NCBI GenBank assembly: GCA_028698185.1
Contig: JAQVDW010000032.1
Coordinates: 1 to 20,254, forward strand
From: Erysipelotrichaceae bacterium
GTDB lineage: Bacteria; Bacillota_I; Bacilli_A; Erysipelotrichales; Coprobacillaceae
Reading direction: 5' to 3'
DNA length: 20,254 nucleotides
The number at the start of each line of letters is the position of its first letter. The stretch's first letter is position 1. A model generated the notes under the pieces. It worked only from the letters and a program-made list of their open reading frames with translations, ran no database searches and was not told the origin of the DNA. Position numbers and translations under genes: made by a program. Shown piece after piece: positions 6,675 to 19,303 of the stretch.

Positions 6675-9029
6675 ATGAAGGCATTGCAATTGCTGGCGAT
6701 TCCCAACCGGGTCTTGCTGGTAAATGAAAAAACAAAAATTAGTTTAAGCGAGTCTGATGATGAGTTATTCTATGACAGGTTAGTCGAAAACAATTTTAAC
6801 GTGCTGGTGTTCGGGGTCAAAAACAACCGGGAACAACCCCTGGGACATCCCCAAGACAGCTACTATAGAGTCGGGACAATGGCAAAATTGTCGAACCGGA
6901 AACTTGTCGATGACCGCTACCAATATGACGTGTTGGCAGTCGCCAAGGTCAAACTAGGCGAGTTCGTCGATCCAACCGCGGCGTTGTACGAGACGATCGA
7001 AGATGTTGACGACCTCAGCTTGAGCGATGACACGCAGATAAAAAAATACATCAAGGATACCCTTAATGAGCTGGCTGGCCAGATCAAGGGGGCCAAACCG
7101 TTTCTCGATTATCTTGAAAGATTGGAAAACATCACCGATGTGATGTTGGCGACCATGCCATATCTAAATCTGCGCTATGATGAAAAGCAGGAGTTTTTGG
7201 AGCTGACATCGAAGCGATACCAGGCGCTCAAATTCATCGATGTCCTGCTCGAATACAAGGAGAATGTGAAGTTCCAATTGGAACTGACGGCAAAATTCAA
7301 TGATGACGTCAATGAACAGTATCGCAAACAAATGCTTAAAAGGCAGCTAGAAACAATCAAAAGCGAGCTGGGCGAAGACGAACCGGAAGACGCGAAGGAC
7401 TATGTGAGCCTAATCGAGCAAGCGATGATGCCCGAGCCGGTCAAAAAGGCCGCTCTTAAGGAAGTCAAGCGGCTCGAGCGCCAGGGTGAGCAGTCGGCCG
7501 AGGCCAATGTGATCATTAATTACCTCGACACCCTGCTTGAACTGCCTTGGAAAGCGCCGCAGATCAACGATGTGAGCATTATGGAAACCCAAAAGACACT
7601 CGATGATGACCATTACGGCTTGGAAAAGGTGAAACAAAGGATCATCGAGCATCTGACCGTGTTGAAGCTCAAACAGAACAAGCAAGGTTCGATTGTCTTG
7701 CTCGCAGGCCCTCCGGGGACCGGTAAGACATCGATCGGGCGGTCAATCGCCAAAGCCCTAGGCCGCGAGTATGTGCGGATTTCATTGGGCGGTGTCCATG
7801 ACGAGGCTGAAATCAGAGGTCATCGCCGGACGTATATCGGGGCGATGCCAGGTAAAATCATCGCCGGGATGAAAAAGGCGCAGACGACCAACCCGGTGTT
7901 CATTCTCGATGAGATTGACAAGCTGTCGCAATCGGCCCATGGGGATCCGACCAGCGCCATGCTGGAGGTCCTCGACCCGGAACAAAACAGCACTTTCCAG
8001 GATCATTACCTAGAGGTCGAATATGACCTTTCAAACGTGTTCTTCATCGCCACTGCAAACAATATCGGCAACATACCGGCACCGCTGCTTGACAGGATGG
8101 AGGTAATCGAACTTTCTTCATACACTTCCCAGGAGAAGTTCGAGATCGCAAGACGGCATCTCGTTTTCGAAGTGCTAAGTGAACATGGCTTGAATGAAGA
8201 ACAGGTGATAATCGATGACGATGCCCTTAGAACTATCATCGATGATTACACGATCGAAGCTGGAGTCCGCAACCTGAAACGACAAATCGAAAAGGTTGTC
8301 CGATCGCTGGCGGTACAAATCATCGAGCAACCGGAAAGCCTGCCACTAAGCGTGGCAAAAGATAAGCTGGGTGATATTCTGGGCCACCGCCTGAACCGCC
8401 ATGATATGGCAGGAAGGCTAAATCCCCCAGGCGTTGTCACCGGGATGGCATGGACGCCCGTAGGCGGCGATATCCTCTATATCGAAGGGGCGCTGATGCC
8501 TGGAGGCGGAAGGATGAATCTGACCGGACAGCTTGGCGACGTTATGCAGGAATCGGCCCAGATTGCCTATTCGCTGGTCCGTTCCCGTCTGGTGTTCAAT
8601 TCCCAGGCAATCAATCTCAAGGACTACGATATGCATATCCATGTCCCTTCAGGGGCGATCAAAAAGGACGGACCAAGTGCTGGGGTGACGATGTTTACAG
8701 CGATGGCATCATTGATTACCGGGATTCCGGTTAATGGGGAACTGGCGATGACTGGTGAAATTTCGTTGCGCGGTGCGGTCCTGCCGGTGGGCGGAATAAA
8801 GGAAAAGGTCATTGCGGCCCACCGCAGCAAAATCAAAAAGATACTGCTGCCCCTCGACAATCAGGATGACATCAAGGACATTCCCCAATCGGTTAGGGAT
8901 GATCTGGAGATCGATTTTGTGGAAACAATCGAGGATGTGCTCAAGCATACCTTGAACATCTATCTGCCACGTCCTGGCTACCAGCTGATGCTTGAAAAAC
9001 AGGATATTCGCTTTATCGGCGAAGGATGA
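6675..9029 (+). CDS. lon: ATP-dependent Lon protease (LonA, endopeptidase La)
   Basis: 784 aa protein with Walker A GPPGTGKTS, Walker B VFILDEIDK, catalytic Ser in KDGPSAGVTM and catalytic Lys in GGIKEKVIAA. A Lon N-terminal domain is present. AGGAGG lies 8 nt upstream of the ATG. Confidence 0.95.
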   Translation: MKALQLLAIPNRVLLVNEKTKISLSESDDELFYDRLVENNFNVLVFGVKNNREQPLGHPQDSYYRVGTMAKLSNRKLVDDRYQYDVLAVAKVKLGEFVDPTAALYETIEDVDDLSLSDDTQIKKYIKDTLNELAGQIKGAKPFLDYLERLENITDVMLATMPYLNLRYDEKQEFLELTSKRYQALKFIDVLLEYKENVKFQLELTAKFNDDVNEQYRKQMLKRQLETIKSELGEDEPEDAKDYVSLIEQAMMPEPVKKAALKEVKRLERQGEQSAEANVIINYLDTLLELPWKAPQINDVSIMETQKTLDDDHYGLEKVKQRIIEHLTVLKLKQNKQGSIVLLAGPPGTGKTSIGRSIAKALGREYVRISLGGVHDEAEIRGHRRTYIGAMPGKIIAGMKKAQTTNPVFILDEIDKLSQSAHGDPTSAMLEVLDPEQNSTFQDHYLEVEYDLSNVFFIATANNIGNIPAPLLDRMEVIELSSYTSQEKFEIARRHLVFEVLSEHGLNEEQVIIDDDALRTIIDDYTIEAGVRNLKRQIEKVVRSLAVQIIEQPESLPLSVAKDKLGDILGHRLNRHDMAGRLNPPGVVTGMAWTPVGGDILYIEGALMPGGGRMNLTGQLGDVMQESAQIAYSLVRSRLVFNSQAINLKDYDMHIHVPSGAIKKDGPSAGVTMFTAMASLITGIPVNGELAMTGEISLRGAVLPVGGIKEKVIAAHRSKIKKILLPLDNQDDIKDIPQSVRDDLEIDFVETIEDVLKHTLNIYLPRPGYQLMLEKQDIRFIGEG

Positions 9030-9034
9030 TGAAA

Positions 9035-9063
9035 AATAGGAGCCAAAATGCTCTTATTTTTTT
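9035..9063 (+). terminator. Intrinsic terminator after lon
   Basis: AATAGGAGC (9035-9043) / GCTCTTATT (9050-9058) form a 9-bp stem (one G-U pair) with a 6-nt loop and a T-run extending to 9063. Confidence 0.8.
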
Positions 9064-9071
9064 GCAAACTG

Positions 9072-9099
9072 TTGTATTATCGAAAAAAATATGTATAAT
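9072..9099 (+). promoter_or_regulatory. Candidate distal promoter (P1) upstream of the polyamine operon
   Basis: TTGTAT (9072-9077), 16-nt spacer, TATAAT (9094-9099). Confidence 0.4.
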
Positions 9100-9220
9100 T
9101 GAATTGCAAAACCAAAGGAACCAATCACTCCAATTCCCGGATTGAAAACCGATTTCACCCAGGGCGCGACAGCACACGAAGCGAAGCGGGGTTGGCAGGA
9201 TTCCGGGCTGTTTGAGCCGA

Positions 9221-9249
9221 TTGACAAAATCGATAAAAAATGTTATATT
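9221..9249 (+). promoter_or_regulatory. Proximal promoter (P2) of the polyamine operon
   Basis: TTGACA (9221-9226), 17-nt spacer, TGtTATATT (hexamer 9244-9249). This is a near-consensus extended -10 promoter. Confidence 0.65.
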
Positions 9250-9284
9250 GAAGTGAGAATAATGAGTAGTAAATAATAGTATTT

Positions 9285-9308
9285 AAAGGCACATTTTCTT
9301 GCCTTTTT
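9285..9308 (+). promoter_or_regulatory. Leader hairpin 1 of the speD 5' UTR
   Basis: AAAGGCA (9285-9291) / TGCCTTT (9300-9306) form a stem with an 8-nt loop. Its 3' arm, CCTTTT (9302-9307), can alternatively pair with AAAAGG (9318-9323). Confidence 0.45.
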
Positions 9309-9320
9309 GCAGTTACTAAA

Positions 9321-9355
9321 AGGATGCGATGGGTCATACCGTCCATCCTATTTTT
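9321..9355 (+). terminator. Terminator-like hairpin inside the speD leader (candidate attenuator)
   Basis: AGGATG-c-GATGG (9321-9332) / CCGTC-CATCCT (9339-9349) give 11 bp with one bulge and one G-U pair, and a 6-nt loop. The hairpin is followed by A-TTTTT (9350-9355) and ends 6 nt before the speD RBS (AGGAG, 9362-9366). Confidence 0.55.
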
Positions 9356-9372
9356 AATGTTAGGAGTTCAGG

Positions 9373-10131
9373 TTGATGGATAAAATGAAGTTGTATGGAT
9401 TTAATAATTTGACCAAATCGTTGAGTTTCAATATTTTCGATGTTTGTTATGCCAAAACCAAGCAGGAACAGGAAGAATATATCGAGTATATCGACGAACA
9501 ATACAATTCGGAGAGGCTGACGCAGATCCTGATCAACGTCACCGAGATGATCGGGGCCACTGTCTTGAATATTGCCAAGCAGGATTACGAACCTCAGGGA
9601 TCGTCGGTCACCATATTGATTGCCGAGGAATCGCAGATCAATTCGGAAACCATTCTCGCCCATCTCGATAAGTCCCACGTAACCGTCCACACCTACCCCG
9701 AAGCCCATCCTGACAATGCCATCTCCACGTTCAGGGTCGATATCGATGTGGCCACTTGTGGCAAAATCACCCCCCTTTCGGTATTGGATTATTTGATTGA
9801 TTCGTTTGATTCCGATATAATTACATTAGATTACAAGGTCAGAGGCTTCACCCGTGACATTTTCGGCGACAAGCACTATATGGACCACAAGATGTCTTCA
9901 ATCCAGGACTACATCGAGGATCGGACGCTGGAAAAATACAATGCGATCGACGTAAATGTCTATCAGTACAATATTTTTCATACCCGTCTGATGTTGAAGG
10001 ATCTCGATATCAACAATTATCTTTTCAAGCATGACGTCGATTCCCTTGATGAGGACCTCAAGGAACAAATTGAAGCTAAACTGAAACTGGAAATGACCGA
10101 GATTTTCAGTGGATTTAATTTTGGAGGATAG
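9373..10131 (+). CDS. speD: S-adenosylmethionine decarboxylase proenzyme, long enterobacterial (E. coli SpeD) type
   Basis: Collinear with E. coli SpeD: [47 protein letters not shown]|[10 protein letters not shown] (autoprocessing Lys-Ser, Ser codon 9673-9675), [20 protein letters not shown]. The start is the TTG at 9373 or the ATG at 9376. Confidence 0.92.
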
Positions 10132-10135
10132 ATTA

Positions 10136-11584
10136 TTGAACGAACAAGAAAGAGCTCCGATCTACGAAGCGTTAGTTGAATTAGAAGAAAACCGGATTGT
10201 TCCCTTTGATGTGCCCGGTCATAAAAGGGGCAAAGGCAACAAGGAATTGCGCAAGCTTTTGGGTGAAAAGTGCCTGGAGCTTGATGTCAACTCGATGAAG
10301 CCGCTAGACAACCTGTGTCATCCAGTTAGCGTCATCAAAGAGGCCGAGGAACTCGCGGCCAAAGCATTCAAGGCCGGTCATGCATTTTTCATGGTCAACG
10401 GGACGACCAGTGCCGTCCAAGCGATGATAATGTCCGTTGTGAAAAAAGGGGACAAGATAATAATGCCCCGCAACGTCCACCGCTCGGCAATCAACGCTTT
10501 GATCATAACTGGAGCGATACCTGTATATGTCAATCCCTCTACCAACGAGAGGCTTGGGATATCGCTGGGGATGCGAATCGACGACGTCAAGGCGGCGATA
10601 GCCCAGAATCCCGAAGCCAAGGCCATCCTGGTCAACAACCCGACTTATTACGGAATCTGTTCCGACCTTAAGGAAATTACCCGCCTTGGTCACGAGGCCA
10701 ACATGCAGGTGCTTGTCGATGAGGCCCATGGAACCCATTTCTATTTTGGCAAAGACATGCCGATAACCGCAATGGCGGCCGGTGCCGATTATGCCGCTGT
10801 TTCGATGCATAAATCGGGCGGTTCATTGACCCAGTCGAGCTTCCTGCTGACCGGGAAGAATGTCAACCATGACTACGTCCGTCAGGTCATCAACCTGACC
10901 CAGACGACATCGGGGTCATATCTGCTGATGGTGTCGCTTGACATCTCACGGCGCAACCTGGCCATTGACGGCAAGAAAATTTTCAAGAAGGTGCTCAACC
11001 TGGCCCAATACGCACGTGATGAGATCAATGACATCGGCGATTATTACGCCTATAGCAGTGAGCTTGTCAATGGCGATTCAATCTACGATTTCGACAAGAC
11101 CAAGCTGGCAATCAACACGCTGGACATCGGAATGGCTGGAATCGAGGTATACGATATCCTGCGCGACGAATATGACATCCAGATTGAGTTTGGCGATCTG
11201 GGCAATATCCTTGCGTATGTATCGGTGGGCGACAACCACAAGAATATCGAGCGGCTCATCGGAGCCCTAAGCGAAATCCGGCGCCGTTACAAACGCGACA
11301 AAAGCGGATTGTTCACTCATGAATATATTTCGCCGAAGGTGAAGTGCTCACCTCAGGTTGCCTTCTATGGCGATAAGGAATCGGTGAAGCTGGCTGATTC
11401 AATCGGCCGGGTGACCAGCGAATTCTGGATGGCCTATCCCCCAGGTATCCCGATACTGGCCCCGGGTGAGGAAATCACCGAGGAAATCATCACCTACATT
11501 GAATATTCCAAAGACAAGGGCTGTTCTCTGCTGGGGATGGAAGACATGAATCTAGAGTATATCAATGTTATCAAGGAGGTCTGA
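10136..11584 (+). CDS. speA: PLP-dependent Orn/Lys/Arg decarboxylase, fold type I (B. subtilis SpeA-like, probable arginine decarboxylase)
   Basis: Matches the B. subtilis SpeA pattern: FDVPGHKRG, IIMPRNVHRS, NPTYYG, LVDEAHG, SMHKSGGSLTQSS (PLP lysine), TTSGSYLLMVSLD. The probable start is the TTG at 10136, with GGAGGA 7 nt upstream; the track start at 10109 lies inside speD. Substrate specificity cannot be read from the sequence alone. Confidence 0.85.
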   Translation: MNEQERAPIYEALVELEENRIVPFDVPGHKRGKGNKELRKLLGEKCLELDVNSMKPLDNLCHPVSVIKEAEELAAKAFKAGHAFFMVNGTTSAVQAMIMSVVKKGDKIIMPRNVHRSAINALIITGAIPVYVNPSTNERLGISLGMRIDDVKAAIAQNPEAKAILVNNPTYYGICSDLKEITRLGHEANMQVLVDEAHGTHFYFGKDMPITAMAAGADYAAVSMHKSGGSLTQSSFLLTGKNVNHDYVRQVINLTQTTSGSYLLMVSLDISRRNLAIDGKKIFKKVLNLAQYARDEINDIGDYYAYSSELVNGDSIYDFDKTKLAINTLDIGMAGIEVYDILRDEYDIQIEFGDLGNILAYVSVGDNHKNIERLIGALSEIRRRYKRDKSGLFTHEYISPKVKCSPQVAFYGDKESVKLADSIGRVTSEFWMAYPPGIPILAPGEEITEEIITYIEYSKDKGCSLLGMEDMNLEYINVIKEV

Positions 11585-11586
11585 TC

Positions 11587-12468
11587 ATGGACTTTTGGTT
11601 TAGTGAAAAACACACTAAAAATGTCAAATTGTCAATCCGGGTGAACAAACAGCTTCATTCTTCTAAAAGCAAGTATCAGCGGATTGATGTATTCGATTCA
11701 TACGAATTCGGGCGCTTTTTGACGCTTGATGGCTACATGATGCTAACAGAAAAGGATGAGTTCATCTATCACGAAATGATAACCCACGTGCCTATGGCCG
11801 TCCATCCCCATCCGGCCAATATCCTGGTCATCGGAGCGGGAGATGGTGGGGTTATCCGTGAACTATGCAAGTACGATATGGTCGAGAGCATCGATCTGGT
11901 CGAAATCGACAAGAAAGTGATTGAGGTGTGCAAGAAATACTTGCCCAAAACCGCTTCCAATTTCGACGACGAACGGGTTACCATCCATATCCAGGACGGG
12001 CTCAAGTTCATCCGCAACAAGGAAAACATGTACGACATCATCATCGTCGATTCCACCGATCCATTTGGACCGGGGGAAGGACTTTTCACCAAAGAGTTCT
12101 ATGGCAACTGCTACAAGGCCCTCAAAGAAGATGGCATCATGGTGAACCAGCATGAGTCACCTTTCTACAAGGAAGACGCCAAGGCGACAGTCCGGGCGCA
12201 CCGGCGGATCTACGAGTCGTTCGACCTGGCCCGGGTCTATCAGGCCCATATTCCGACCTATCCTTCAGGCCATTGGCTGTTTGGATTCGCTTCGAAGAAA
12301 TATCATCCTGTCCATTCCCTAGATAAGAAAAGATGGCAGGATTTGAAGATAGAATGCCGTTACTACAACCCCAATTTGCATGTTGGCTCGTTCGCTTTGC
12401 CAAACTATGTTGAATCATTATTGAAAAGTGTTGAAGATGACACGGAAAATCAGGAGGAAAAACAATGA
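11587..12468 (+). CDS. speE: Spermidine synthase family aminopropyltransferase
   Basis: Motifs: LDGYMMLTEKDEFIYHEMITHVPM, VIGAGDGGVIRE, VEIDKKVIEVCKKYLP, DSTDPFGPGEGLF. The ATG lies 2 nt after the speA stop, with GGAGG upstream. Confidence 0.92.
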   Translation: MDFWFSEKHTKNVKLSIRVNKQLHSSKSKYQRIDVFDSYEFGRFLTLDGYMMLTEKDEFIYHEMITHVPMAVHPHPANILVIGAGDGGVIRELCKYDMVESIDLVEIDKKVIEVCKKYLPKTASNFDDERVTIHIQDGLKFIRNKENMYDIIIVDSTDPFGPGEGLFTKEFYGNCYKALKEDGIMVNQHESPFYKEDAKATVRAHRRIYESFDLARVYQAHIPTYPSGHWLFGFASKKYHPVHSLDKKRWQDLKIECRYYNPNLHVGSFALPNYVESLLKSVEDDTENQEEKQ

Positions 12469-13664
12469 AAGCTTTGATTATTGGAGCCGGCGGAGTTGCC
12501 GGCGTAGTGGTGGCAAAATGCTGCCAAAACAGCGATGTGTTCAGTGAAATCATGATTGCGTCACGCACAATTGGCCGCTGCGACGAACTAAAAGAAAAAA
12601 ACCAGGACAAGACCGAAACCAAGATTTCCACAGCCAAAGTGGATGCCAACAATGTGGCGGAACTTGTCGCTTTGATGAATGAATTCCAACCGGACATCTG
12701 CATCAATGTGGCTTTGCCATACCAGGATCTGACAATCATGGATGCCTGTCTTGAATACGGTGTGGACTACCTGGATACTGCCAACTACGAACCTGAAGAC
12801 ACTGCCAAATTCGAATACAAATGGCAATGGGCTTACAAGGACAAATTCGAAAAAGCCGGACTGACTGCGATCCTTGGCTGCGGATTCGATCCGGGTGTTA
12901 CAGGAGTTTTCTCGGCTTACGCTTTGAAGCATTATTTCGATGAAATCAACTATATCGACATCCTTGACTGCAACGGCGGTGACCATGGTTATCCATTCGC
13001 GACAAACTTCAACCCGGAAATCAATATCCGCGAAGTTTCAGCAAAGGGAAGCTACTGGGAAAATGGTGAATGGATCGAAACCGAACCGATGGAAATCAAA
13101 CGCGAATACGATTTCGATCAGGTCGGAGTGAAAGACATGTATCTGCTCCACCATGAGGAATTGGAATCTTTGGGAATCAATATGCCTGGAATCAAGCGAA
13201 TCCGTTTCTTCATGACGTTCGGTCAATCGTATCTTACCCACCTGAAATGTCTTGAAAACGTGGGGATGACTTCAATCGAGCCTATCATGTTCGAAGGCAA
13301 AGAAATCATTCCGCTGCAATTCTTGAAGGCGGTACTTCCTGATCCGGCATCACTGGGGCCACGCACAGTCGGGAAGACAAATATCGGCTGCATCTACCAA
13401 GGTAAAAAAGACGGCAAGGATGTTAAATACTACATCTACAATGTCTGCGACCACCAGGAAGCCTACAAGGAAGTCGGTTCCCAAGCGGTAAGCTACACGA
13501 CTGGTGTTCCGGCGATGATCGGGGCAATGATGGTCCTTAAGGGCATCTGGAAAAAACCAGGGGTCTTCAATGTGGAAGAGATGGATCCCGATCCATTCAT
13601 GGAAAAATTGAACGAATGCGGTCTGCCATGGATTGAAAACTTCAATCCGGTATTGGTTGACTAG
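12465..13664 (+). CDS. Carboxynorspermidine/carboxyspermidine dehydrogenase (saccharopine dehydrogenase fold)
   Basis: N-terminal Rossmann IIGAGGVAGVV. CANSDH/CASDH-like blocks: WQWAYKDKFEKAGLTAILGCGFDPGV, GDHGYPFATNFNPEIN, YWENGEW, VSYTTGVPA, PGVFNVEEMDPDPF. Its ATG overlaps the speE TGA (ATGA at 12465-12468). Confidence 0.9.
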   Translation: MKALIIGAGGVAGVVVAKCCQNSDVFSEIMIASRTIGRCDELKEKNQDKTETKISTAKVDANNVAELVALMNEFQPDICINVALPYQDLTIMDACLEYGVDYLDTANYEPEDTAKFEYKWQWAYKDKFEKAGLTAILGCGFDPGVTGVFSAYALKHYFDEINYIDILDCNGGDHGYPFATNFNPEINIREVSAKGSYWENGEWIETEPMEIKREYDFDQVGVKDMYLLHHEELESLGINMPGIKRIRFFMTFGQSYLTHLKCLENVGMTSIEPIMFEGKEIIPLQFLKAVLPDPASLGPRTVGKTNIGCIYQGKKDGKDVKYYIYNVCDHQEAYKEVGSQAVSYTTGVPAMIGAMMVLKGIWKKPGVFNVEEMDPDPFMEKLNECGLPWIENFNPVLVD

Positions 13665-13665
13665 A

Positions 13666-14775
13666 ATGACAGCATTGAAAACCCCTTGCTATGTGGTAAA
13701 CAAGCAGCGGCTAATCAATAACCTGGAAATACTCAAAAGCGTCAAGGATCGCACCGGATGCAAGGTGCTTTTGGCATCCAAGTGTTTCTCGATGTATTCC
13801 CTCTATCCGCTGATCGGACAATATCTCGATGGGGTATGCGCTTCGGGAGTCAACGAGGCCCGCTTGGGCCGGGAGGAGATGGACAAGGAAGTCCATACCT
13901 TCTCGCCGGCATTTTATCCAAACGAATTCGATGACATCGTCAGATATTCCAATGATATCGTGTTCAATTCATATTCCCAATATGAACGCTACAAGGACCA
14001 GCTGACCCCGGATATTTCCGTGGGCCTGCGGGTTAATCCGGAGTGCTCGACCCAGGATCACGGGATCTATGACCCTTGTGCGATCGGGTCGCGGCTGGGG
14101 CTGCTTGCAAAGACGCTTGAGGGCAAGGACATGAGCGGAATCGACGGATTCCATTTCCACACCTTGTGCGAGCAGGGCAGCGAGGATCTGGAAACGACAT
14201 TGGTCGCTTTCGAGGAGAAATTCGCCAAATACCTGCCATCCTTGAAGTGGATCAACTTCGGCGGTGGCCATCATATAACCAAACCCGGATACAATATCGA
14301 ACTGCTGATCGAACTGGTTAACAGGATCCAGGACAAATATCAGGTCCAGGTCATTCTCGAACCAGGTGAGGCGGTCGCGCTCGATGCCGGGGAGCTTTAT
14401 GCAAGCGTCCTTGATTTCAATGAGAATCATGGCGTAGTCAACGCAATACTTGATGCCTCGGCGGCATGTCATATGCCCGATGTTATCGAGATGCCTTACC
14501 GGCCCCGGGTTGTCGGTGAGAACCCTGAAGGCAAGTACACTTACCGCTTTGGCGGACCGACCTGTCTGGCTGGCGACGTCATCGGCGACTACAGCTTCGA
14601 CAAGCCCCTGCATATCGGCGAAACTGTCATCTTTGAGGATATGGCCATCTACACGATGGTCAAGAACAACACATTCAATGGCATGAACCTGCCTGCAATC
14701 TATATCGAGGATGGCGAAGAATTCAAACTGGTCAAGGAATTTGGCTACGAAGATTTCAAGTGCCGTCTTTCATAA
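13666..14775 (+). CDS. nspC: Carboxynorspermidine/carboxyspermidine decarboxylase (PLP, alanine-racemase fold)
   Basis: NspC-like blocks: KTPCYVVNKQRLINNLE, LLASKCFSMYSLYPLIGQYLDG, SGVNEARLG, GFHFHTLCEQ, NFGGGHH, ILEPGEAV, GGPTCLAGDVIG. The start is the ATG at 13666, one nt after the dehydrogenase stop; the track's TTG at 13633 is an upstream extension. Confidence 0.9.
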   Translation: MTALKTPCYVVNKQRLINNLEILKSVKDRTGCKVLLASKCFSMYSLYPLIGQYLDGVCASGVNEARLGREEMDKEVHTFSPAFYPNEFDDIVRYSNDIVFNSYSQYERYKDQLTPDISVGLRVNPECSTQDHGIYDPCAIGSRLGLLAKTLEGKDMSGIDGFHFHTLCEQGSEDLETTLVAFEEKFAKYLPSLKWINFGGGHHITKPGYNIELLIELVNRIQDKYQVQVILEPGEAVALDAGELYASVLDFNENHGVVNAILDASAACHMPDVIEMPYRPRVVGENPEGKYTYRFGGPTCLAGDVIGDYSFDKPLHIGETVIFEDMAIYTMVKNNTFNGMNLPAIYIEDGEEFKLVKEFGYEDFKCRLS

Positions 14776-14776
14776 C

Positions 14777-14818
14777 AAAAAACCTGTGGAAGTATTTAGC
14801 TTTTGCAGGTTTTGTTTT
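14777..14818 (+). terminator. Terminator-like hairpin after the polyamine operon
   Basis: AAAACCTG / CAGGTTTT form the stem, extended by G-U/A-U pairs around a TATTTA loop, followed by GTTTT. The Nudix RBS follows within about 10 nt. Confidence 0.6.
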
Positions 14819-15450: not shown

Positions 15451-15560
15451 ATTAAATGCCTTAGCACGATATAATAACTATTTCAGAAAATATCGGCGGA
15501 CTGACAATACAACTATCGGTGCTAACGGGATATTGTGGATATCTAATAGAGGAGAAAAAA

Positions 15561-16385
15561 ATGGATAAGTTAGAATTACAAAAAATAGCTAATCAGATTC
15601 GTATCGGTGCCATTAATGCGGTTCACTGCGCGAGTTCAGGCCATCCAGGCGGTTCGCTGTCAGCTGCGGACATATTAACTTATTTGTATTTTGTGGAAAT
15701 GAATATCGATCCTAAAAATCCAAAAATGGATGAACGTGATCGTTTTGTCTTGTCGAAAGGCCATGTGACCCCGGGTTACTATGCGACCTTGGCCAACAGA
15801 GGTTATTTCGACGTGTCCGAACTGGCAACATTCAGAAAAGTCGGAACAAGATTGCAGGGACATCCGGCAATGCAATATATCGACGGAATCGACATGTCTT
15901 CAGGATCTCTTGGTCAAGGTCTTTCAACGGCAGTGGGAATGGCCAAAGCCTTCCAAATGGACAAGAAATCAAACCGTGTCTATGCCCTTTGCGGTGACGG
16001 GGAAATTCAAGAAGGCCAAATCTGGGAAGCGGCGATGTTTGCCGGTTCAAACCACTTGGACAACCTGACAGTTGTTGTTGACAACAACAATCTTCAAATT
16101 GACGGTTCGATCGAGGAAGTCAATTCACCTTATCCAATTGATAAAAAATTCGAAGCTTTCAATTTCAACGTGATCACTATCGACGGCCATGACTTCGACG
16201 AGATTGCGGCGGGATTCAAGGCCGCAAGAGAATTCAAAGGGAAACCGACTGTGATCATCGCCAAAACGATCAAAGGAAAAGGTGTTTCCTTCATGGAAAA
16301 CAATGTTGCTTGGCATGGAAGCGCGCCAAACGACAGCCAATGTGACCAGGCAATGGCTGATTTGATGAAAGGTGAGGTGGCATAA
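15561..16385 (+). CDS. Transketolase, N-terminal (TPP-binding) subunit
   Basis: Motifs SGHPGGSLSAADIL, LSKGH, GSLGQGLS and CGDGEIQEGQIWEA. About 274 aa, the split-transketolase form. The start is the ATG at 15561, after GAGGAG. Confidence 0.93.
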   Translation: MDKLELQKIANQIRIGAINAVHCASSGHPGGSLSAADILTYLYFVEMNIDPKNPKMDERDRFVLSKGHVTPGYYATLANRGYFDVSELATFRKVGTRLQGHPAMQYIDGIDMSSGSLGQGLSTAVGMAKAFQMDKKSNRVYALCGDGEIQEGQIWEAAMFAGSNHLDNLTVVVDNNNLQIDGSIEEVNSPYPIDKKFEAFNFNVITIDGHDFDEIAAGFKAAREFKGKPTVIIAKTIKGKGVSFMENNVAWHGSAPNDSQCDQAMADLMKGEVA

Positions 16386-16387
16386 TA

Positions 16388-17320
16388 ATGGCAGATAAGA
16401 TTGCAACTAGAATCTCATACGGGGAAACCCTGGTTGAGCTTGGAAAAATCCATGAGGATTTGGTGGTATTGGATGCCGATCTGGCTGCCGCTACAAAGAC
16501 CGACATGTTCAAAAAGGCTTTTCCTGAACGTTTCATCGACGTCGGAATCGCTGAAGCGAACCTGATGGGTATCGCTGCGGGAATGAGCACATGTGGCAAA
16601 GTTCCTTTTTGCTCTACTTTCGCGATGTTCGCGGCCGGACGAGCGTTCGAACAGGTCCGCAACACAATCGGATACCCTCATCTGAATGTGAAAATCGGGG
16701 CTACCCATGCCGGAATAACTGTCGGTGAAGACGGGGCGTCGCATCAGTGCAACGAAGACCTGGCCTTGATGAGCACAATCCCGGGCATGACGGTAATCGT
16801 TCCAAGTGACGATATCGAAGCAAGAGCGGCAGTAAAAGCTGCTTATGAGACTTATGGGCCGATGTATCTTCGGTTCGGTCGGGCGCCGGTTGATGTGATC
16901 AATGATTTCGAAGGATACAAATTCGAAATCGGCAAAGGTGTCAAACTCAAAGAAGGAAAAGATATCACCATCATCGCGACCGGTATCTGCGTTGGCAATT
17001 CATTGGAAGCGGCCAAAATGCTTGAAGCCGATGGGATCAGCGCTGAAGTCATCAATATCCATACGATCAAACCATTGGATGCGAACATCATCATCGAGTC
17101 AGCGAAGAAGACTAACCGCGTCTTCACTGTTGAGGAACATTCAATAATCAACGGATTGGGTTCTCAAGTTGCCAGCACCCTTGGAGAAAACCATCCGGTA
17201 AAAGTAACCAAGATCGGGATGTACGATGTTTTCGGTGAATCAGGTCCGGCGGCAGAGCTTCTGGTGAAATACCAATTTGATCCAACAGGAATCTATAACC
17301 AGATCAAAGCGAAATTATAA
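16388..17320 (+). CDS. Transketolase, C-terminal (pyrimidine-binding) subunit
   Basis: Motifs: RISYGETLVELG, FIDVGIAEANLMGIAAG, GEDGASHQ. 310 aa; it starts 2 nt after the N-subunit stop. Confidence 0.93.
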   Translation: MADKIATRISYGETLVELGKIHEDLVVLDADLAAATKTDMFKKAFPERFIDVGIAEANLMGIAAGMSTCGKVPFCSTFAMFAAGRAFEQVRNTIGYPHLNVKIGATHAGITVGEDGASHQCNEDLALMSTIPGMTVIVPSDDIEARAAVKAAYETYGPMYLRFGRAPVDVINDFEGYKFEIGKGVKLKEGKDITIIATGICVGNSLEAAKMLEADGISAEVINIHTIKPLDANIIIESAKKTNRVFTVEEHSIINGLGSQVASTLGENHPVKVTKIGMYDVFGESGPAAELLVKYQFDPTGIYNQIKAKL

Positions 17321-17324
17321 TATG

Positions 17325-17358
17325 AAAAAAACACATATCGTTGCGATATGTGTTTTTT
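17325..17358. terminator. Bidirectional intrinsic terminator between convergent tkt and anSME genes
   Basis: AAAAAAACACATATCG (17325-17340) / CGATATGTGTTTTTT (17344-17358) are perfectly complementary, with A-runs and T-runs on both sides. The hairpin overlaps the anSME stop codon. Confidence 0.9.
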
Positions 17359-18478
17359 AGCGTTGGCGTTCCTGCCAGTATTCCAATACTTCCCTTAACT
17401 GGTCGAGCCGGTTGTCGAGGAAGTATCGATAGGACTCACAGAAGTGGTTTTTCAACAGGCGGCCGTTGGCCTGTTCGATATTCCGGTAGCAGCCGCCGCC
17501 ACAATACTTCAGGTATTGACATTCAAGACATTCCTCGTTGATCTCCCGTGAGAGCTCGATGAATTTCAGTTCCTTGCGCTTATGGTCGAATTCCTTGAAT
17601 GTGCCGGTATTGACATTTCCCAGGACGAGTTCGTCCAGGCAGTAGAAATCACAAGGATAGACATTGCCGTTGGCCTCGACAACATAGTTTTTCGCACAGC
17701 CGGTCTTGTAGGTGCAAAGTTCGTTTCTGATGTCGTTTTCGATCATCATCAGGTTTTCAAAATAGCGGATAAAAACATAGCGCCCGCTCATCATTTCCTG
17801 ATAATATTTGTCGAAGATGGCGACCAAAAATTTGCCGTACTCGGCAGGATCAAGCGAGAAGGGACTGCTGTTTTTTGGCACGCCCAGGGGATCGAGGCAC
17901 TCGATGAACTGGAGATAGCGCAGGTCATTTTTCATGAATGTGTCAAACATTTCTTCGGGATGCTTGACATTTTCGCTGTTGACAACGCAAAGGATGTTGA
18001 AATCGATCTTGTATCGTTTCAGCAGCGATATGGTCTCCATGACGCGATTGTAACTGCCCTTGCCGTCGGGGTAGACCCGGTAACGGTCATGGGTCAGCTT
18101 GAGCCCGTCCAATGAGATTCCGACCATGAAGTTGTTACGCGCTAGGAAGCGGCACCAGTCGCGGTCAATAGTCGTACCATTGGTCTGGATCGAATAGTGG
18201 ATCGGGATTTTTTTTGTGTTGCGAAGATGCACATAGTCGACAAACCGTTCGAAATACTCCAGCCCGGCCAAAGTCGGTTCGCCCCCCTGAAAGGCGAAAC
18301 TGATGGAGTCGGTGGCACTCGCCAGGGCTAGGGTGATCATATTTGATGTGGTATTTTCGTCCATGAAATTGAAGTTGCCTGACTTGCGATTCTCAAGTTC
18401 GTCGAGATAGAAGCAGTAATGGCAACGCAGATTGCAGGTTCCCGATGCGGGTTTTATAAGAAGTGAAAGATTTTTCAT
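17357..18478 (-). CDS. Anaerobic sulfatase-maturating enzyme (radical SAM / SPASM domain)
   Basis: Collinear with my recollection of Clostridium perfringens anSME: LSLLIKPASGTCNLRCHYCFY (CX3CX2C), SFAFQGGEPTLAGLEYF, IQTNGT, FNILCVV, LQFIECLDP. The SPASM cysteines are present: C-x5-C-x14-C (CTYKTGC...YPCDFY) and CLECQYLKYCGGGC, plus HFCESY. The start is the ATG at 18478, with GGAGA 8 nt upstream and 1 nt after the rpiR stop. Confidence 0.88.
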   Translation of the reverse strand: MKNLSLLIKPASGTCNLRCHYCFYLDELENRKSGNFNFMDENTTSNMITLALASATDSISFAFQGGEPTLAGLEYFERFVDYVHLRNTKKIPIHYSIQTNGTTIDRDWCRFLARNNFMVGISLDGLKLTHDRYRVYPDGKGSYNRVMETISLLKRYKIDFNILCVVNSENVKHPEEMFDTFMKNDLRYLQFIECLDPLGVPKNSSPFSLDPAEYGKFLVAIFDKYYQEMMSGRYVFIRYFENLMMIENDIRNELCTYKTGCAKNYVVEANGNVYPCDFYCLDELVLGNVNTGTFKEFDHKRKELKFIELSREINEECLECQYLKYCGGGCYRNIEQANGRLLKNHFCESYRYFLDNRLDQLREVLEYWQERQR

Positions 18479-18479
18479 A

Positions 18480-19256
18480 TTACTTGTCTCCATTGATTTT
18501 TGCGAGTTGCGAAACGAATATTTCGATAAAGACGTAGCTTATGGCCTGGAGGTCCAGAAATGTTCCGTATTGCATCAGGTTATGGGGCAATGCGAAGTAA
18601 TAGTCAACGTCATTTTTGAACTTCAGGTCGTCAGCAAAGGTGACGACCATGATTTTGGCTTTGGTTTGTGAAAACTCGTCAGAATAACGGCCATAAAAGC
18701 CGGTGTTGTCGTTGTTGGTGAAGATTATAATCATGTCGTCTTCGCTAATGGTGCGCACCGTGTCGAGAATCAGCGCCGTATCATCGATGGCGTGGGAGAT
18801 TTCGGTATAGGTGTTCAAGACCCGGTAACAAAACTGTTTGGCGGCCAGGCCGGCCTTGTTCAGTCCGAACACCTTGGAACGGTTTACGGTTGCCAGGTCT
18901 TGGCAGGCCTTCTTTATGACATCAAGATCCAGGCTGTCGTTTAGGGCCTCGATCGAGCTGATGTATTTGGTGGTGATGATTTTGATTAGGTCGCTCTGGC
19001 TGTTGGTCGAGCTGTCCATCGTGTTGTTGGAAATTAGGTAGCGGTTGATCTCGTAGCGCAGCTCGATATAGCCGTTGAAACCGAGCTTTTTGGCGAAGCG
19101 GATCAGTCCGGCTTTTGATATCCCGACTGCCTGCGTTATATTTTCGATGTCCTTGCGGCAGAACTGCCGGGGATTGTTGATGATGTAGTTGGCGATTTTG
19201 AGTTCGTTGTTCGTATATTTGTCAAAACTTGCTTGGATCAGTTCTAAAATATCCAT
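18480..19256 (-). CDS. RpiR/MurR family transcriptional regulator (HTH_6 + SIS domain)
   Basis: N-terminal HTH (NELKIANYIINNPRQ...ITQAVGISKAGLIRFAKKLGFNGY) and a C-terminal SIS-like domain. The start is the ATG at 19256, with GGAGG 7 nt upstream; the track start at 19298 lies in the promoter. Confidence 0.88.
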   Translation of the reverse strand: MDILELIQASFDKYTNNELKIANYIINNPRQFCRKDIENITQAVGISKAGLIRFAKKLGFNGYIELRYEINRYLISNNTMDSSTNSQSDLIKIITTKYISSIEALNDSLDLDVIKKACQDLATVNRSKVFGLNKAGLAAKQFCYRVLNTYTEISHAIDDTALILDTVRTISEDDMIIIFTNNDNTGFYGRYSDEFSQTKAKIMVVTFADDLKFKNDVDYYFALPHNLMQYGTFLDLQAISYVFIEIFVSQLAKINGDK

Positions 19257-19274
19257 ATTTGCACCTCCGGATTG

Positions 19275-19303
19275 ATTATAACACATAATAAAATACATTT
19301 CAA
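19275..19303 (-). promoter_or_regulatory. Candidate promoter of rpiR-anSME
   Basis: Minus strand: TTGAAA (19303-19298), 17-nt spacer, TGtTATAAT (hexamer 19280-19275). Caveat: the predicted start site would fall almost on the SD, giving a very short leader. Confidence 0.45.

Follow-up and report, generated by a model that had tools for sequence, protein, structure and literature searches.

A hybrid, agmatine-based pathway to spermidine and spermine is already known from Clostridium leptum and Deferribacter desulfuricans. The C. leptum operon was drawn in 2023 as speD, speA, speE, speB, CASDH and CASDC (Lee et al. 2023, JBC 299:105033, Fig. 1B, PMC10413350), and it was dissected in 2025 by heterologous expression of its genes, in which the aspartate-semialdehyde module led by way of N1-aminopropylagmatine to spermidine and SpeD/SpeE led to spermine (Li et al. 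2025, JBC 301:108390, PMC11999265). Five of these enzyme families recur in the stretch of DNA analysed here (20,254 nt; hereafter the window), in unchanged order and on one strand, in a host of the Erysipelotrichaceae rather than the Oscillospiraceae, to which C. leptum belongs. Identities between the window's proteins and those of a C. leptum-like contig (L084) range from 60 to 77%, and both loci have the carboxyaminopropylagmatine dehydrogenase (CAPADH) signature and the GAGDGG motif. In the C. leptum-type operon, however, a 283-aa arginase-family ureohydrolase is encoded between speE and the dehydrogenase gene, where the window has an ATGA overlap. The operon type is thus already known, and the window is another example of it that differs by the missing ureohydrolase; an earlier note on this DNA, which saw here a candidate for under-described biochemistry, is overtaken by these two papers. 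The window does extend the hybrid-operon arrangement to the Erysipelotrichaceae, and others have already pointed out that operons of this type are likely to provide microbial spermine in the gut.

More distant systems share parts of this arrangement. The Synechocystis pathway (CAPADH, CAPADC and APAUH; Xi et al. 2023, Sci Adv 9:eadj9075) has, as described, no SpeD/SpeE module, unlike the window, and it includes APAUH, for which the window has no linked gene. The S. pneumoniae operon comprises SP_0916 arginine decarboxylase, speE, the SPD_0812 dehydrogenase, which is the closest solved relative of the window's dehydrogenase, and nspC. Two streptococcal loci in our set (L019 and L020) encode ADC, SpeE, SpeB, dehydrogenase and decarboxylase; these loci keep the ureohydrolase, and their clusters lack an E. 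coli-type speD, whereas the window is the reverse on both counts. The CASDH/CASDC pathway of Agrobacterium tumefaciens and the carboxynorspermidine pathway of Vibrio cholerae employ the two folds and the chemistry also found in the window, namely reductive condensation with aspartate semialdehyde and, in the next step, a PLP-dependent decarboxylation, but enzymes of these types have I/W/D or V/E/D at the positions where the window has N/F/E.

The operon occupies positions 9373–14775 and consists of five genes on the forward strand with spacings of 4, 2, −4 and 1 nt. speD (9373–10131) begins at TTG 9373 or, more likely, at ATG 9376, which is the start as called in a relative (L081), and ends with a TAG stop at 10131. 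It is followed by speA (10136–11584), with a TTG start 4 nt (ATTA) past the speD stop and a TGA stop, and by speE (11587–12468), whose ATG at 11587 lies 2 nt past the speA stop. The dehydrogenase gene (12465–13664) has the ATGA at 12465–12468 in common with speE and ends in TAG, and the ATG of the partner decarboxylase gene (13666–14775) is found 1 nt past that stop. The gene coordinates, the five-gene order and all four junctions as the earlier note had given them were confirmed exactly on the sequence. Ribosome-binding sites precede speA (GGAGGA), speE (AAGGAGG) and the dehydrogenase gene (AGGAGG); a clear Shine-Dalgarno sequence was not seen 5′ of the last gene, which is consistent with reliance of the decarboxylase on translational coupling. 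Taken jointly with the hybrid-pathway explanation as a whole, the five genes probably form one transcription unit, and the junctions, at which the stop codon of one gene overlaps or almost touches the start codon of the next, would provide for co-expression of the five proteins.

The earlier note had held that genomes typically use one aminopropylation route and had proposed a survey of co-occurrence. The former does not apply to this clade, in which speE and the dehydrogenase gene are linked in 47 of 60 informative Bacillota loci, and the survey revealed the same gene order in dozens of species, a recurrence that argues against chance. Among the closest Bacillota homologues no arrangement is commoner than the linked operon, and the five-gene unit is kept across differing genomic contexts.

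The dehydrogenase (domains PF03435 and PF16653) carries the CAPADH signature N107/F116/E231 (N104/F113/E228 in the Synechocystis comparison), together with seven more conserved active-site residues (E109, D142, D168, E190, H230, T345, and T346). At 57% identity and full coverage to Synechocystis CAPADH (8h4z), it falls among the CAPADH orthologs as delimited by Xi et al. 2023, for which the identity threshold is 47%. Its best match among solved structures is 4RL6 (668 bits), S. pneumoniae SPD_0812, a protein that biochemical work has established as a CAPADH (Xi et al. 2023, Sci Adv 9:eadj9075), and it is 77% identical to the CAPADH of the C. leptum-like contig. From its sequence we identify the protein as a carboxyaminopropylagmatine dehydrogenase, which would use NADPH to condense agmatine reductively with aspartate beta-semialdehyde. 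The earlier note had named the pair as putrescine-type CASDH/CASDC, and this naming was given up: the N/F/E signature is that of CAPADH rather than I/W/D or V/E/D, the characterised relatives use agmatine, and the score against NF043000 (415.5 bits) is far under the 800-bit cut-off, so a putrescine-type CASDH was ruled out. The partner decarboxylase scores 468.7 bits against TIGR01047 (cut-off 409), aligns end to end with the C. leptum CASDC structure 9eaf (497.8 bits) and is 60% identical to its counterpart on the C. leptum-like contig; these matches identify it as a putative carboxyaminopropylagmatine/carboxyspermidine decarboxylase, PLP-dependent and of the alanine-racemase fold. When expressed, C. 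leptum CASDH/CASDC formed no spermine, and their yield of N1-aminopropylagmatine was ~150-fold higher than that of a true putrescine-type pair (Li et al. 2025, PMC11999265).

The remaining three proteins would supply agmatine and decarboxylated SAM and make use of the latter. SpeA matches PF01276 (245 bits) and PF03711, contains the PLP-lysine motif SMHKS and is predicted to be a short (“ancestral”) PLP-dependent basic amino acid decarboxylase of the aspartate-aminotransferase fold and B. subtilis type, acting on arginine to form agmatine. SpeD matches PF02675 and TIGR03331 (394.8 bits; cut-off 255.8) and contains the self-processing motif LDK-SH, which corresponds to the Lys-Ser self-cleavage site of the E. 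coli enzyme; these features mark it as an E. coli-type (class 1a) pyruvoyl S-adenosylmethionine decarboxylase proenzyme, the putative source of decarboxylated SAM. It belongs to the large E. coli-type class and not to the small class from which neofunctionalised arginine/ornithine decarboxylases arose, and no solved structure similar to it was found. SpeE (NF002010, 404.6 bits; cut-off 260) is a polyamine aminopropyltransferase and is predicted to be a spermine synthase that would also aminopropylate agmatine. Its motifs (LVIGAGDGG with Glu at +20, Asp in motif 2, Gly at +2, and Glu in motif 3) fit a spermine-synthase pattern; the pattern was dropped as a discriminator because the spermidine synthase of Thermotoga maritima shows the same one.

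Together, the five genes probably encode a hybrid route to spermidine and spermine that starts from agmatine. SpeA would convert arginine to agmatine, CAPADH would condense agmatine with aspartate beta-semialdehyde at the expense of NADPH to give carboxyaminopropylagmatine, and the partner decarboxylase would turn this into N1-aminopropylagmatine, from which a ureohydrolase, presumably encoded outside the window, would remove urea to leave spermidine. SpeD would form decarboxylated SAM, which SpeE would use mainly to extend spermidine to spermine, with some activity on agmatine. The DNA itself shows what the genes are, how the operon is built, that its arrangement is conserved, which signature residues are present and that speB is absent from the window; substrates, products and the unlinked ureohydrolase are carried over from homologues, those with functional data being 60–77% identical and expressed in E. 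coli. The sequential hybrid pathway of the earlier note, with a triamine made by one module and spermine by the other, agrees with the published C. leptum expression data (PMC11999265) and for that same reason is not new.

Alternatively, one could envision simple redundancy, in which spermidine, or its guanidino precursor, is the shared end point of both modules and SpeE is an ordinary spermidine/N1-aminopropylagmatine synthase that makes no tetraamine. In Sporomusa ovata, whose genome has both routes, the aminopropyltransferase yielded spermidine only (Li et al. 2025, PMC11999265); spermine and spermidine synthases are not told apart by the SpeE motif pattern, and the best solved-structure match of SpeE is B. 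subtilis spermidine synthase (1iy9). Nevertheless, SpeE and the 284-aa aminopropyltransferase of the C. leptum-like contig share 74% identity, and the C. leptum enzyme is a spermine-specific synthase (Li et al. 2025, PMC11999265); SpeE scores 452 bits against the C. leptum-type enzyme (BLASTP) as compared to 292 bits against B. subtilis SpeE (phmmer), the two scores coming from different programs. The linkage of the modules in so many of the Bacillota loci is, moreover, hard to account for by redundancy alone, and we regard this alternative as unlikely.

The only unusual feature of the window is that speB is missing from its normal place between the two modules. Pfam scans found no arginase-family gene in the operon or, among all other large ORFs, in the whole 20-kb window; tblastn gave no match to speB or a degraded remnant in the window or in two further loci (L081 and L082), and no arginase-family gene was called in a third (L086). 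In all, three close relatives of the window and Beduini massiliensis lack the gene. Across the linked loci, speB is present in 47 of 58, always with DAHxDLR, and absent from the other 11, which fall in several separate clades, indicating that the ureohydrolase gene has been lost from the operon repeatedly. We considered a degraded speB or a replacement gene and rejected both: the speB-less loci gave no tblastn match, and the ORFs in the gap between their dehydrogenase and decarboxylase genes are mutually unrelated. One such gap ORF, in locus L053, is acetyltransferase-like. The earlier note had passed over the absence of speB.

Since neither the operon nor the 20 kb around it encodes a ureohydrolase, the step to spermidine is left without a window-encoded enzyme, and we presume that this enzyme is encoded elsewhere in the genome. 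A lineage that has no N1-aminopropylagmatine hydrolase at all would instead end in guanidino-polyamines, rely on an unrelated enzyme, or leave the last step to neighbouring gut microbes. The absence of speB from the window, its three close relatives and B. massiliensis, and from loci in several separate clades, is in keeping with such a lineage, as is a search with the speB of “Beduini sp.” as query, in which no ureohydrolase traceable to the window's clade was seen among the top 120 matches listed (a weak negative). Against this, both modules would then give the same product from agmatine, and a spermine-synthase-type enzyme should, from its reaction chemistry, be unable to extend the guanidino end. 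Genes of this pathway are unlinked elsewhere, as in Synechocystis, where those of the CAPADH pathway are not known to form one operon, and the 20 kb seen here come from a genome of ~2.9 Mb. We therefore consider a ureohydrolase-free lineage here quite improbable, and assign a similarly small chance to the broader proposal that the window's lineage and the other speB-less lineages may all lack the enzyme, with guanidino-polyamines as end products, a non-homologous hydrolase, or cross-feeding in the gut to spermidine and spermine. If the broader proposal were true, the polyamine end products of these lineages would be unlike those of the published scheme, and predictions of the gut bacteria from which spermidine and spermine come would shift.

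A start from putrescine, in which the decarboxylase of speB-less operons would be an ornithine (or lysine) decarboxylase, no ureohydrolase would be needed and the dehydrogenase would form carboxyspermidine, would explain the missing speB and draws on the existence of short aspartate-aminotransferase-fold ornithine and lysine decarboxylases in Clostridia and on the slow but measurable activity of C. leptum CASDH on putrescine (74 M−1 s−1; Lee et al. 2023, PMC10413350), but it is very unlikely given that the agmatine signature N/F/E is kept in the window's dehydrogenase and in all 84 homologues examined, that SpeA shares 71% identity with the decarboxylase of the C. leptum-like contig and 63–64% with the streptococcal operon homologues as compared to ~45% in one characterised arginine/ornithine decarboxylase pair, and that a separate clade for the decarboxylases of speB-less operons was rejected, such loci being scattered among speB-bearing ones in rough neighbour-joining trees that carry no support values.

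Returning to the five-gene unit as a hybrid spermidine/spermine operon, candidate signals for its expression flank it on both sides, in line with the promoter region and terminator that the earlier note had described. Upstream, a strong promoter-like site (P2, 9221–9249, forward strand) reads TTGACA-17-TGTTATATT, with 11 of 12 positions matching and an extended −10; it is identical in the window, L081 and L086, and a further promoter-like site, also conserved, lies ~150 nt 5′ of it. The 5′ leader contains two hairpin and U-run elements (9285–9355, forward strand) that make it a candidate attenuator: hairpin 1 at 9285–9308 and hairpin 2 at 9322–9348, with a U-run at 9351–9355, directly 5′ of the ribosome-binding site AGGAG (9362–9366). 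A scan placed a terminator-like site at 9328–9347, the leader folds at −30.1 kcal/mol (z = −2.06), and the hairpin is kept in L086 despite a differing inner stem and loop; the segment 9105–9225, by comparison, shows no folding beyond that of shuffled sequence (z = 0.09). Rfam matched no family, and no known riboswitch, in the leader, whether gathering scores were applied or the limit was relaxed to E = 10. The orthologous five-gene operon of B. massiliensis matches the ldcC RNA motif (RF02440) with 57.8 bits (gathering score 37.2), whereas positions 8980–9420 of the window gave no match to this motif even at E up to 10. Downstream, an intrinsic terminator (14779–14818, forward strand) consists of a 15-bp hairpin followed by GUUUU (−18.5 kcal/mol, z = −3.23); a simple scan had passed over it.

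All five genes lie on the same strand and form one tight unit, as the earlier note had claimed and as the ORF listing and a reading of the junctions bear out: speD (TTG 9373 or ATG 9376 to 10131), speA (TTG 10136–11584), speE (11587–12468), the dehydrogenase gene (12465–13664) and a decarboxylase gene (13666–14775), with intergenic distances of 4, 2, −4 (an ATGA common to speE and the dehydrogenase) and 1 nt, and with strong Shine-Dalgarno sequences 5' of the speA, speE and dehydrogenase starts. The promoter and terminator also claimed correspond to a promoter-like site at 9221–9249 (TTGACA, 17 nt, TGTTATATT; 11/12 positions match), unchanged in two relatives, and to a 15-bp hairpin followed by GUUUU at 14779–14818 (z = −3.2), which ends the operon. 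The NUDIX gene 3' of this terminator (ATG 14834) is outside the conserved unit, because Beduini massiliensis has a different gene there.

Profile scans identify SpeD as an E. coli-type S-adenosylmethionine decarboxylase (TIGR03331, 394.8 bits; cut-off 255.8), SpeA as a short Orn/Lys/Arg decarboxylase with an aspartate-aminotransferase fold, of the kind represented by B. subtilis SpeA (PF01276, 245 bits), SpeE as a polyamine aminopropyltransferase (NF002010, 404.6 bits; cut-off 260), the dehydrogenase as a saccharopine-dehydrogenase-fold protein (PF03435 and PF16653), and the last enzyme as a carboxynorspermidine/carboxyspermidine decarboxylase (TIGR01047, 468.7 bits; cut-off 409). Degeneracy of either aminopropylation module, a possibility raised at the outset, was checked: the key motifs are intact (self-cleavage LDK-SH in SpeD, PLP-lysine SMHK in SpeA, DSTDP in SpeE, the PLP lysine of the last decarboxylase), and no protein looks degenerate. 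The window SpeD falls in the large class; the SpeD proteins reported to have turned into arginine or ornithine decarboxylases are members of the small class.

The dehydrogenase had been called CASDH, an assignment that does not hold, as it scores only 415 bits with the carboxynorspermidine synthase model (cut-off 800) and has another active-site signature. Carboxyaminopropylagmatine dehydrogenase (CAPADH) is defined by N104, F113 and E228, where putrescine/diaminopropane enzymes have I/W/D or V/E/D (Xi et al. 2023, Sci Adv 9:eadj9075); aligned to Synechocystis 8h4z, the window enzyme has N107, F116 and E231 and keeps all seven further mutagenesis-tested active-site residues. It is 57% identical to 8h4z, the CAPADH ortholog threshold of Xi et al. 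being 47%, and its closest solved structure is 4RL6, S. pneumoniae SPD_0812, biochemically identified as CAPADH (Xi et al. 2023, Sci Adv 9:eadj9075). Judged by these residues, the window dehydrogenase is of the agmatine-specific type (CAPADH).

The biochemistry proposed as under-described has in fact been published between 2023 and 2025. Lee et al. (2023, PMC10413350) drew a C. leptum operon of SAM decarboxylase, arginine decarboxylase, spermidine synthase, agmatine ureohydrolase, CASDH and CASDC, and took it to suggest two paths to spermidine. When C. leptum genes were expressed in E. coli, CASDH/CASDC gave N1-aminopropylagmatine ∼150-fold above a true putrescine-type pair and no spermine, and the aminopropyltransferase acted as a spermine synthase of high specificity; the hybrid pathway proposed runs from arginine to agmatine, carboxyaminopropylagmatine, N1-aminopropylagmatine, spermidine and spermine (Li et al. 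2025, PMC11999265). The tested proteins have near-consecutive accessions (EDO61987, 61989, 61991, 61992). A metagenomic reference contig (L084), retrieved with the C. leptum CASDC sequence from crystal structure 9eaf, encodes a decarboxylase 99% identical to 9eaf, and its gene lengths (284, 283, 399 and 376 aa) are those of the published proteins. Its order is decarboxylase, aminopropyltransferase, arginase-family protein, dehydrogenase, decarboxylase, and the window proteins share 71% (decarboxylase), 74% (aminopropyltransferase), 77% (dehydrogenase) and 60% (second decarboxylase) identity with their counterparts. Both aminopropyltransferases have GAGDGG and a Glu 20 residues on, consistent with the pattern that Li et al. 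2024 give for spermine synthases; this is not decisive, because T. maritima spermidine synthase shows the same pattern. Simple redundancy, in which SpeE would be a spermidine synthase like the Sporomusa ovata enzyme, appears unlikely to us.

The arrangement is also widespread. With one genome per species, we found at least 596 close dehydrogenase homologues and examined the best 80, so that the sample is biased to close relatives; gene order was counted in the 60 loci that extend 5.5 kb or more upstream. The co-occurrence that the earlier note proposed to survey recurs, speE lying upstream on the same strand in 47/60 loci; the order speD, speA, speE, speB, dehydrogenase is found in 28 of the 60 and the window's order, lacking speB, in 10. 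Bacillus and Paenibacillus loci have the dehydrogenase–decarboxylase pair only. The N/F/E signature is kept in 84/84 dehydrogenases. In a group of Ruminococcus/Oscillospiraceae genomes (L052, L056, L057, L063, L065 and L072), the operon contains, between speB and the dehydrogenase, a gene for a predicted membrane protein of 150–210 aa, present once or as up to three copies in tandem. An acetyltransferase-like ORF lies between dehydrogenase and decarboxylase at L053:9194–9670, and a gene with acetyltransferase Pfam domains directly downstream of the operon, on the opposite strand, at L085:12417–12872; these may be operon-associated polyamine N-acetyltransferases.

The operon type and its function are thus already known, the feature is real and the reasoning from sequence was sound; what sets this operon apart is the missing ureohydrolase gene (speB). 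We found no ureohydrolase gene in the operon of this Erysipelotrichaceae bacterium or elsewhere in the 20 kb, nor speB in two close relatives that share its flanking genes (L081, 98% dehydrogenase identity; L086, 93%) or at the Beduini massiliensis operon, whose genomic surroundings differ; in 'Beduini sp.' (L085), speB is part of a compact operon of six genes. A weak, indirect search with a related-species ureohydrolase gave no match traceable to the window's clade among the best 120. DAHxDLR occurs in each of the 50 SpeB proteins encoded in these operons; its Arg is at the position given as specific for N1-aminopropylagmatine ureohydrolase (Xi et al. 2023, Sci Adv 9:eadj9075) and is present in T. 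volcanium 3pzl and absent from guanidinobutyrase 3nio. The loci lacking speB (11 of 58 linked loci) are dispersed across the decarboxylase and aminopropyltransferase trees, which points to repeated loss or relocation rather than a special enzyme clade. We consider it probable that the window encodes the published hybrid pathway, in which arginine would be converted through agmatine, carboxyaminopropylagmatine and N1-aminopropylagmatine to spermidine and then spermine, the ureohydrolase step being supplied by a gene elsewhere in the genome. A pathway truly without ureohydrolase, ending in guanidino-polyamines, is decidedly improbable, and a putrescine-based route with an ornithine decarboxylase, against which both the N/F/E signature and the decarboxylase tree argue, is the least probable reading. 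SpeE of the window's clade has 290–293 aa and an acidic C-terminal tail (SVEDDTENQEEKQ; 12430–12468), compared with 279–284 aa in L082, L084 and L085, and L086:9900–10000 has a 59-nt spacer at the place of the window's ATGA overlap; this may be a scar of speB deletion.

Two consecutive hairpin-plus-U-run elements (9285–9308 and 9322–9355) occupy the leader between the promoter and the speD ribosome-binding site, which they directly precede, the second being retained in L086 though its inner stem and loop differ; together (9285–9355) they look like a candidate transcription attenuation system. Rfam families gave no match to this leader. In the Beduini operons, too, the ribosome-binding site is closely preceded by a strong terminator hairpin, and the operon of Beduini massiliensis carries the ldcC RNA motif (RF02440, 57.8 bits), an orphan candidate cis-regulator earlier tied to polyamine genes. 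In 25 loci (among them L082:6743–6793, L014:1353, L031:7595, L060:3726 and L085:5939) the ldcC core precedes the first gene of the operon, and it was not found in the window's clade; the motif is 170–500 nt 5' of that gene, which is speD in hybrid operons and the dehydrogenase gene in Bacillus and Paenibacillus. Core positions 3 and 18, which lie where the Rfam model leaves bases unpaired, co-vary (mostly G:C; A:U in L044, L053, L059, L063, L066 and L085), and this suggests an additional 3-bp helix, GGC/GCC. In the window, 9105–9225, between two conserved promoter-like sites, is very divergent with many indels (window, L081, L086) between near-identical flanks, and its fold is no more stable than that of shuffled controls (z = 0.09). 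The segment ends at its 3' side in CCGGGCTGTTTGAGCCGATT, which looks like the 3' end of ldcC and runs directly into the promoter's −35 element, TTGACA; the segment may be a decayed ldcC element.

Elsewhere, positions 1–85, at the window edge, hold the 3' portion of a 5S rRNA gene (RF00001, 44.7 bits; 5' end cut off), and transketolase is split between two neighbouring genes, for a thiamine-diphosphate N-terminal half (15519–16385) and a pyrimidine-binding/C-terminal half (16388–17320), 2 nt apart. On the minus strand (17357–19298), the genes for a radical SAM/SPASM-domain protein and an RpiR-family regulator overlap, and in L081 PTS EIIC and sulfatase genes come next after this pair; this may be an anaerobic sulfatase-maturase-type cluster.
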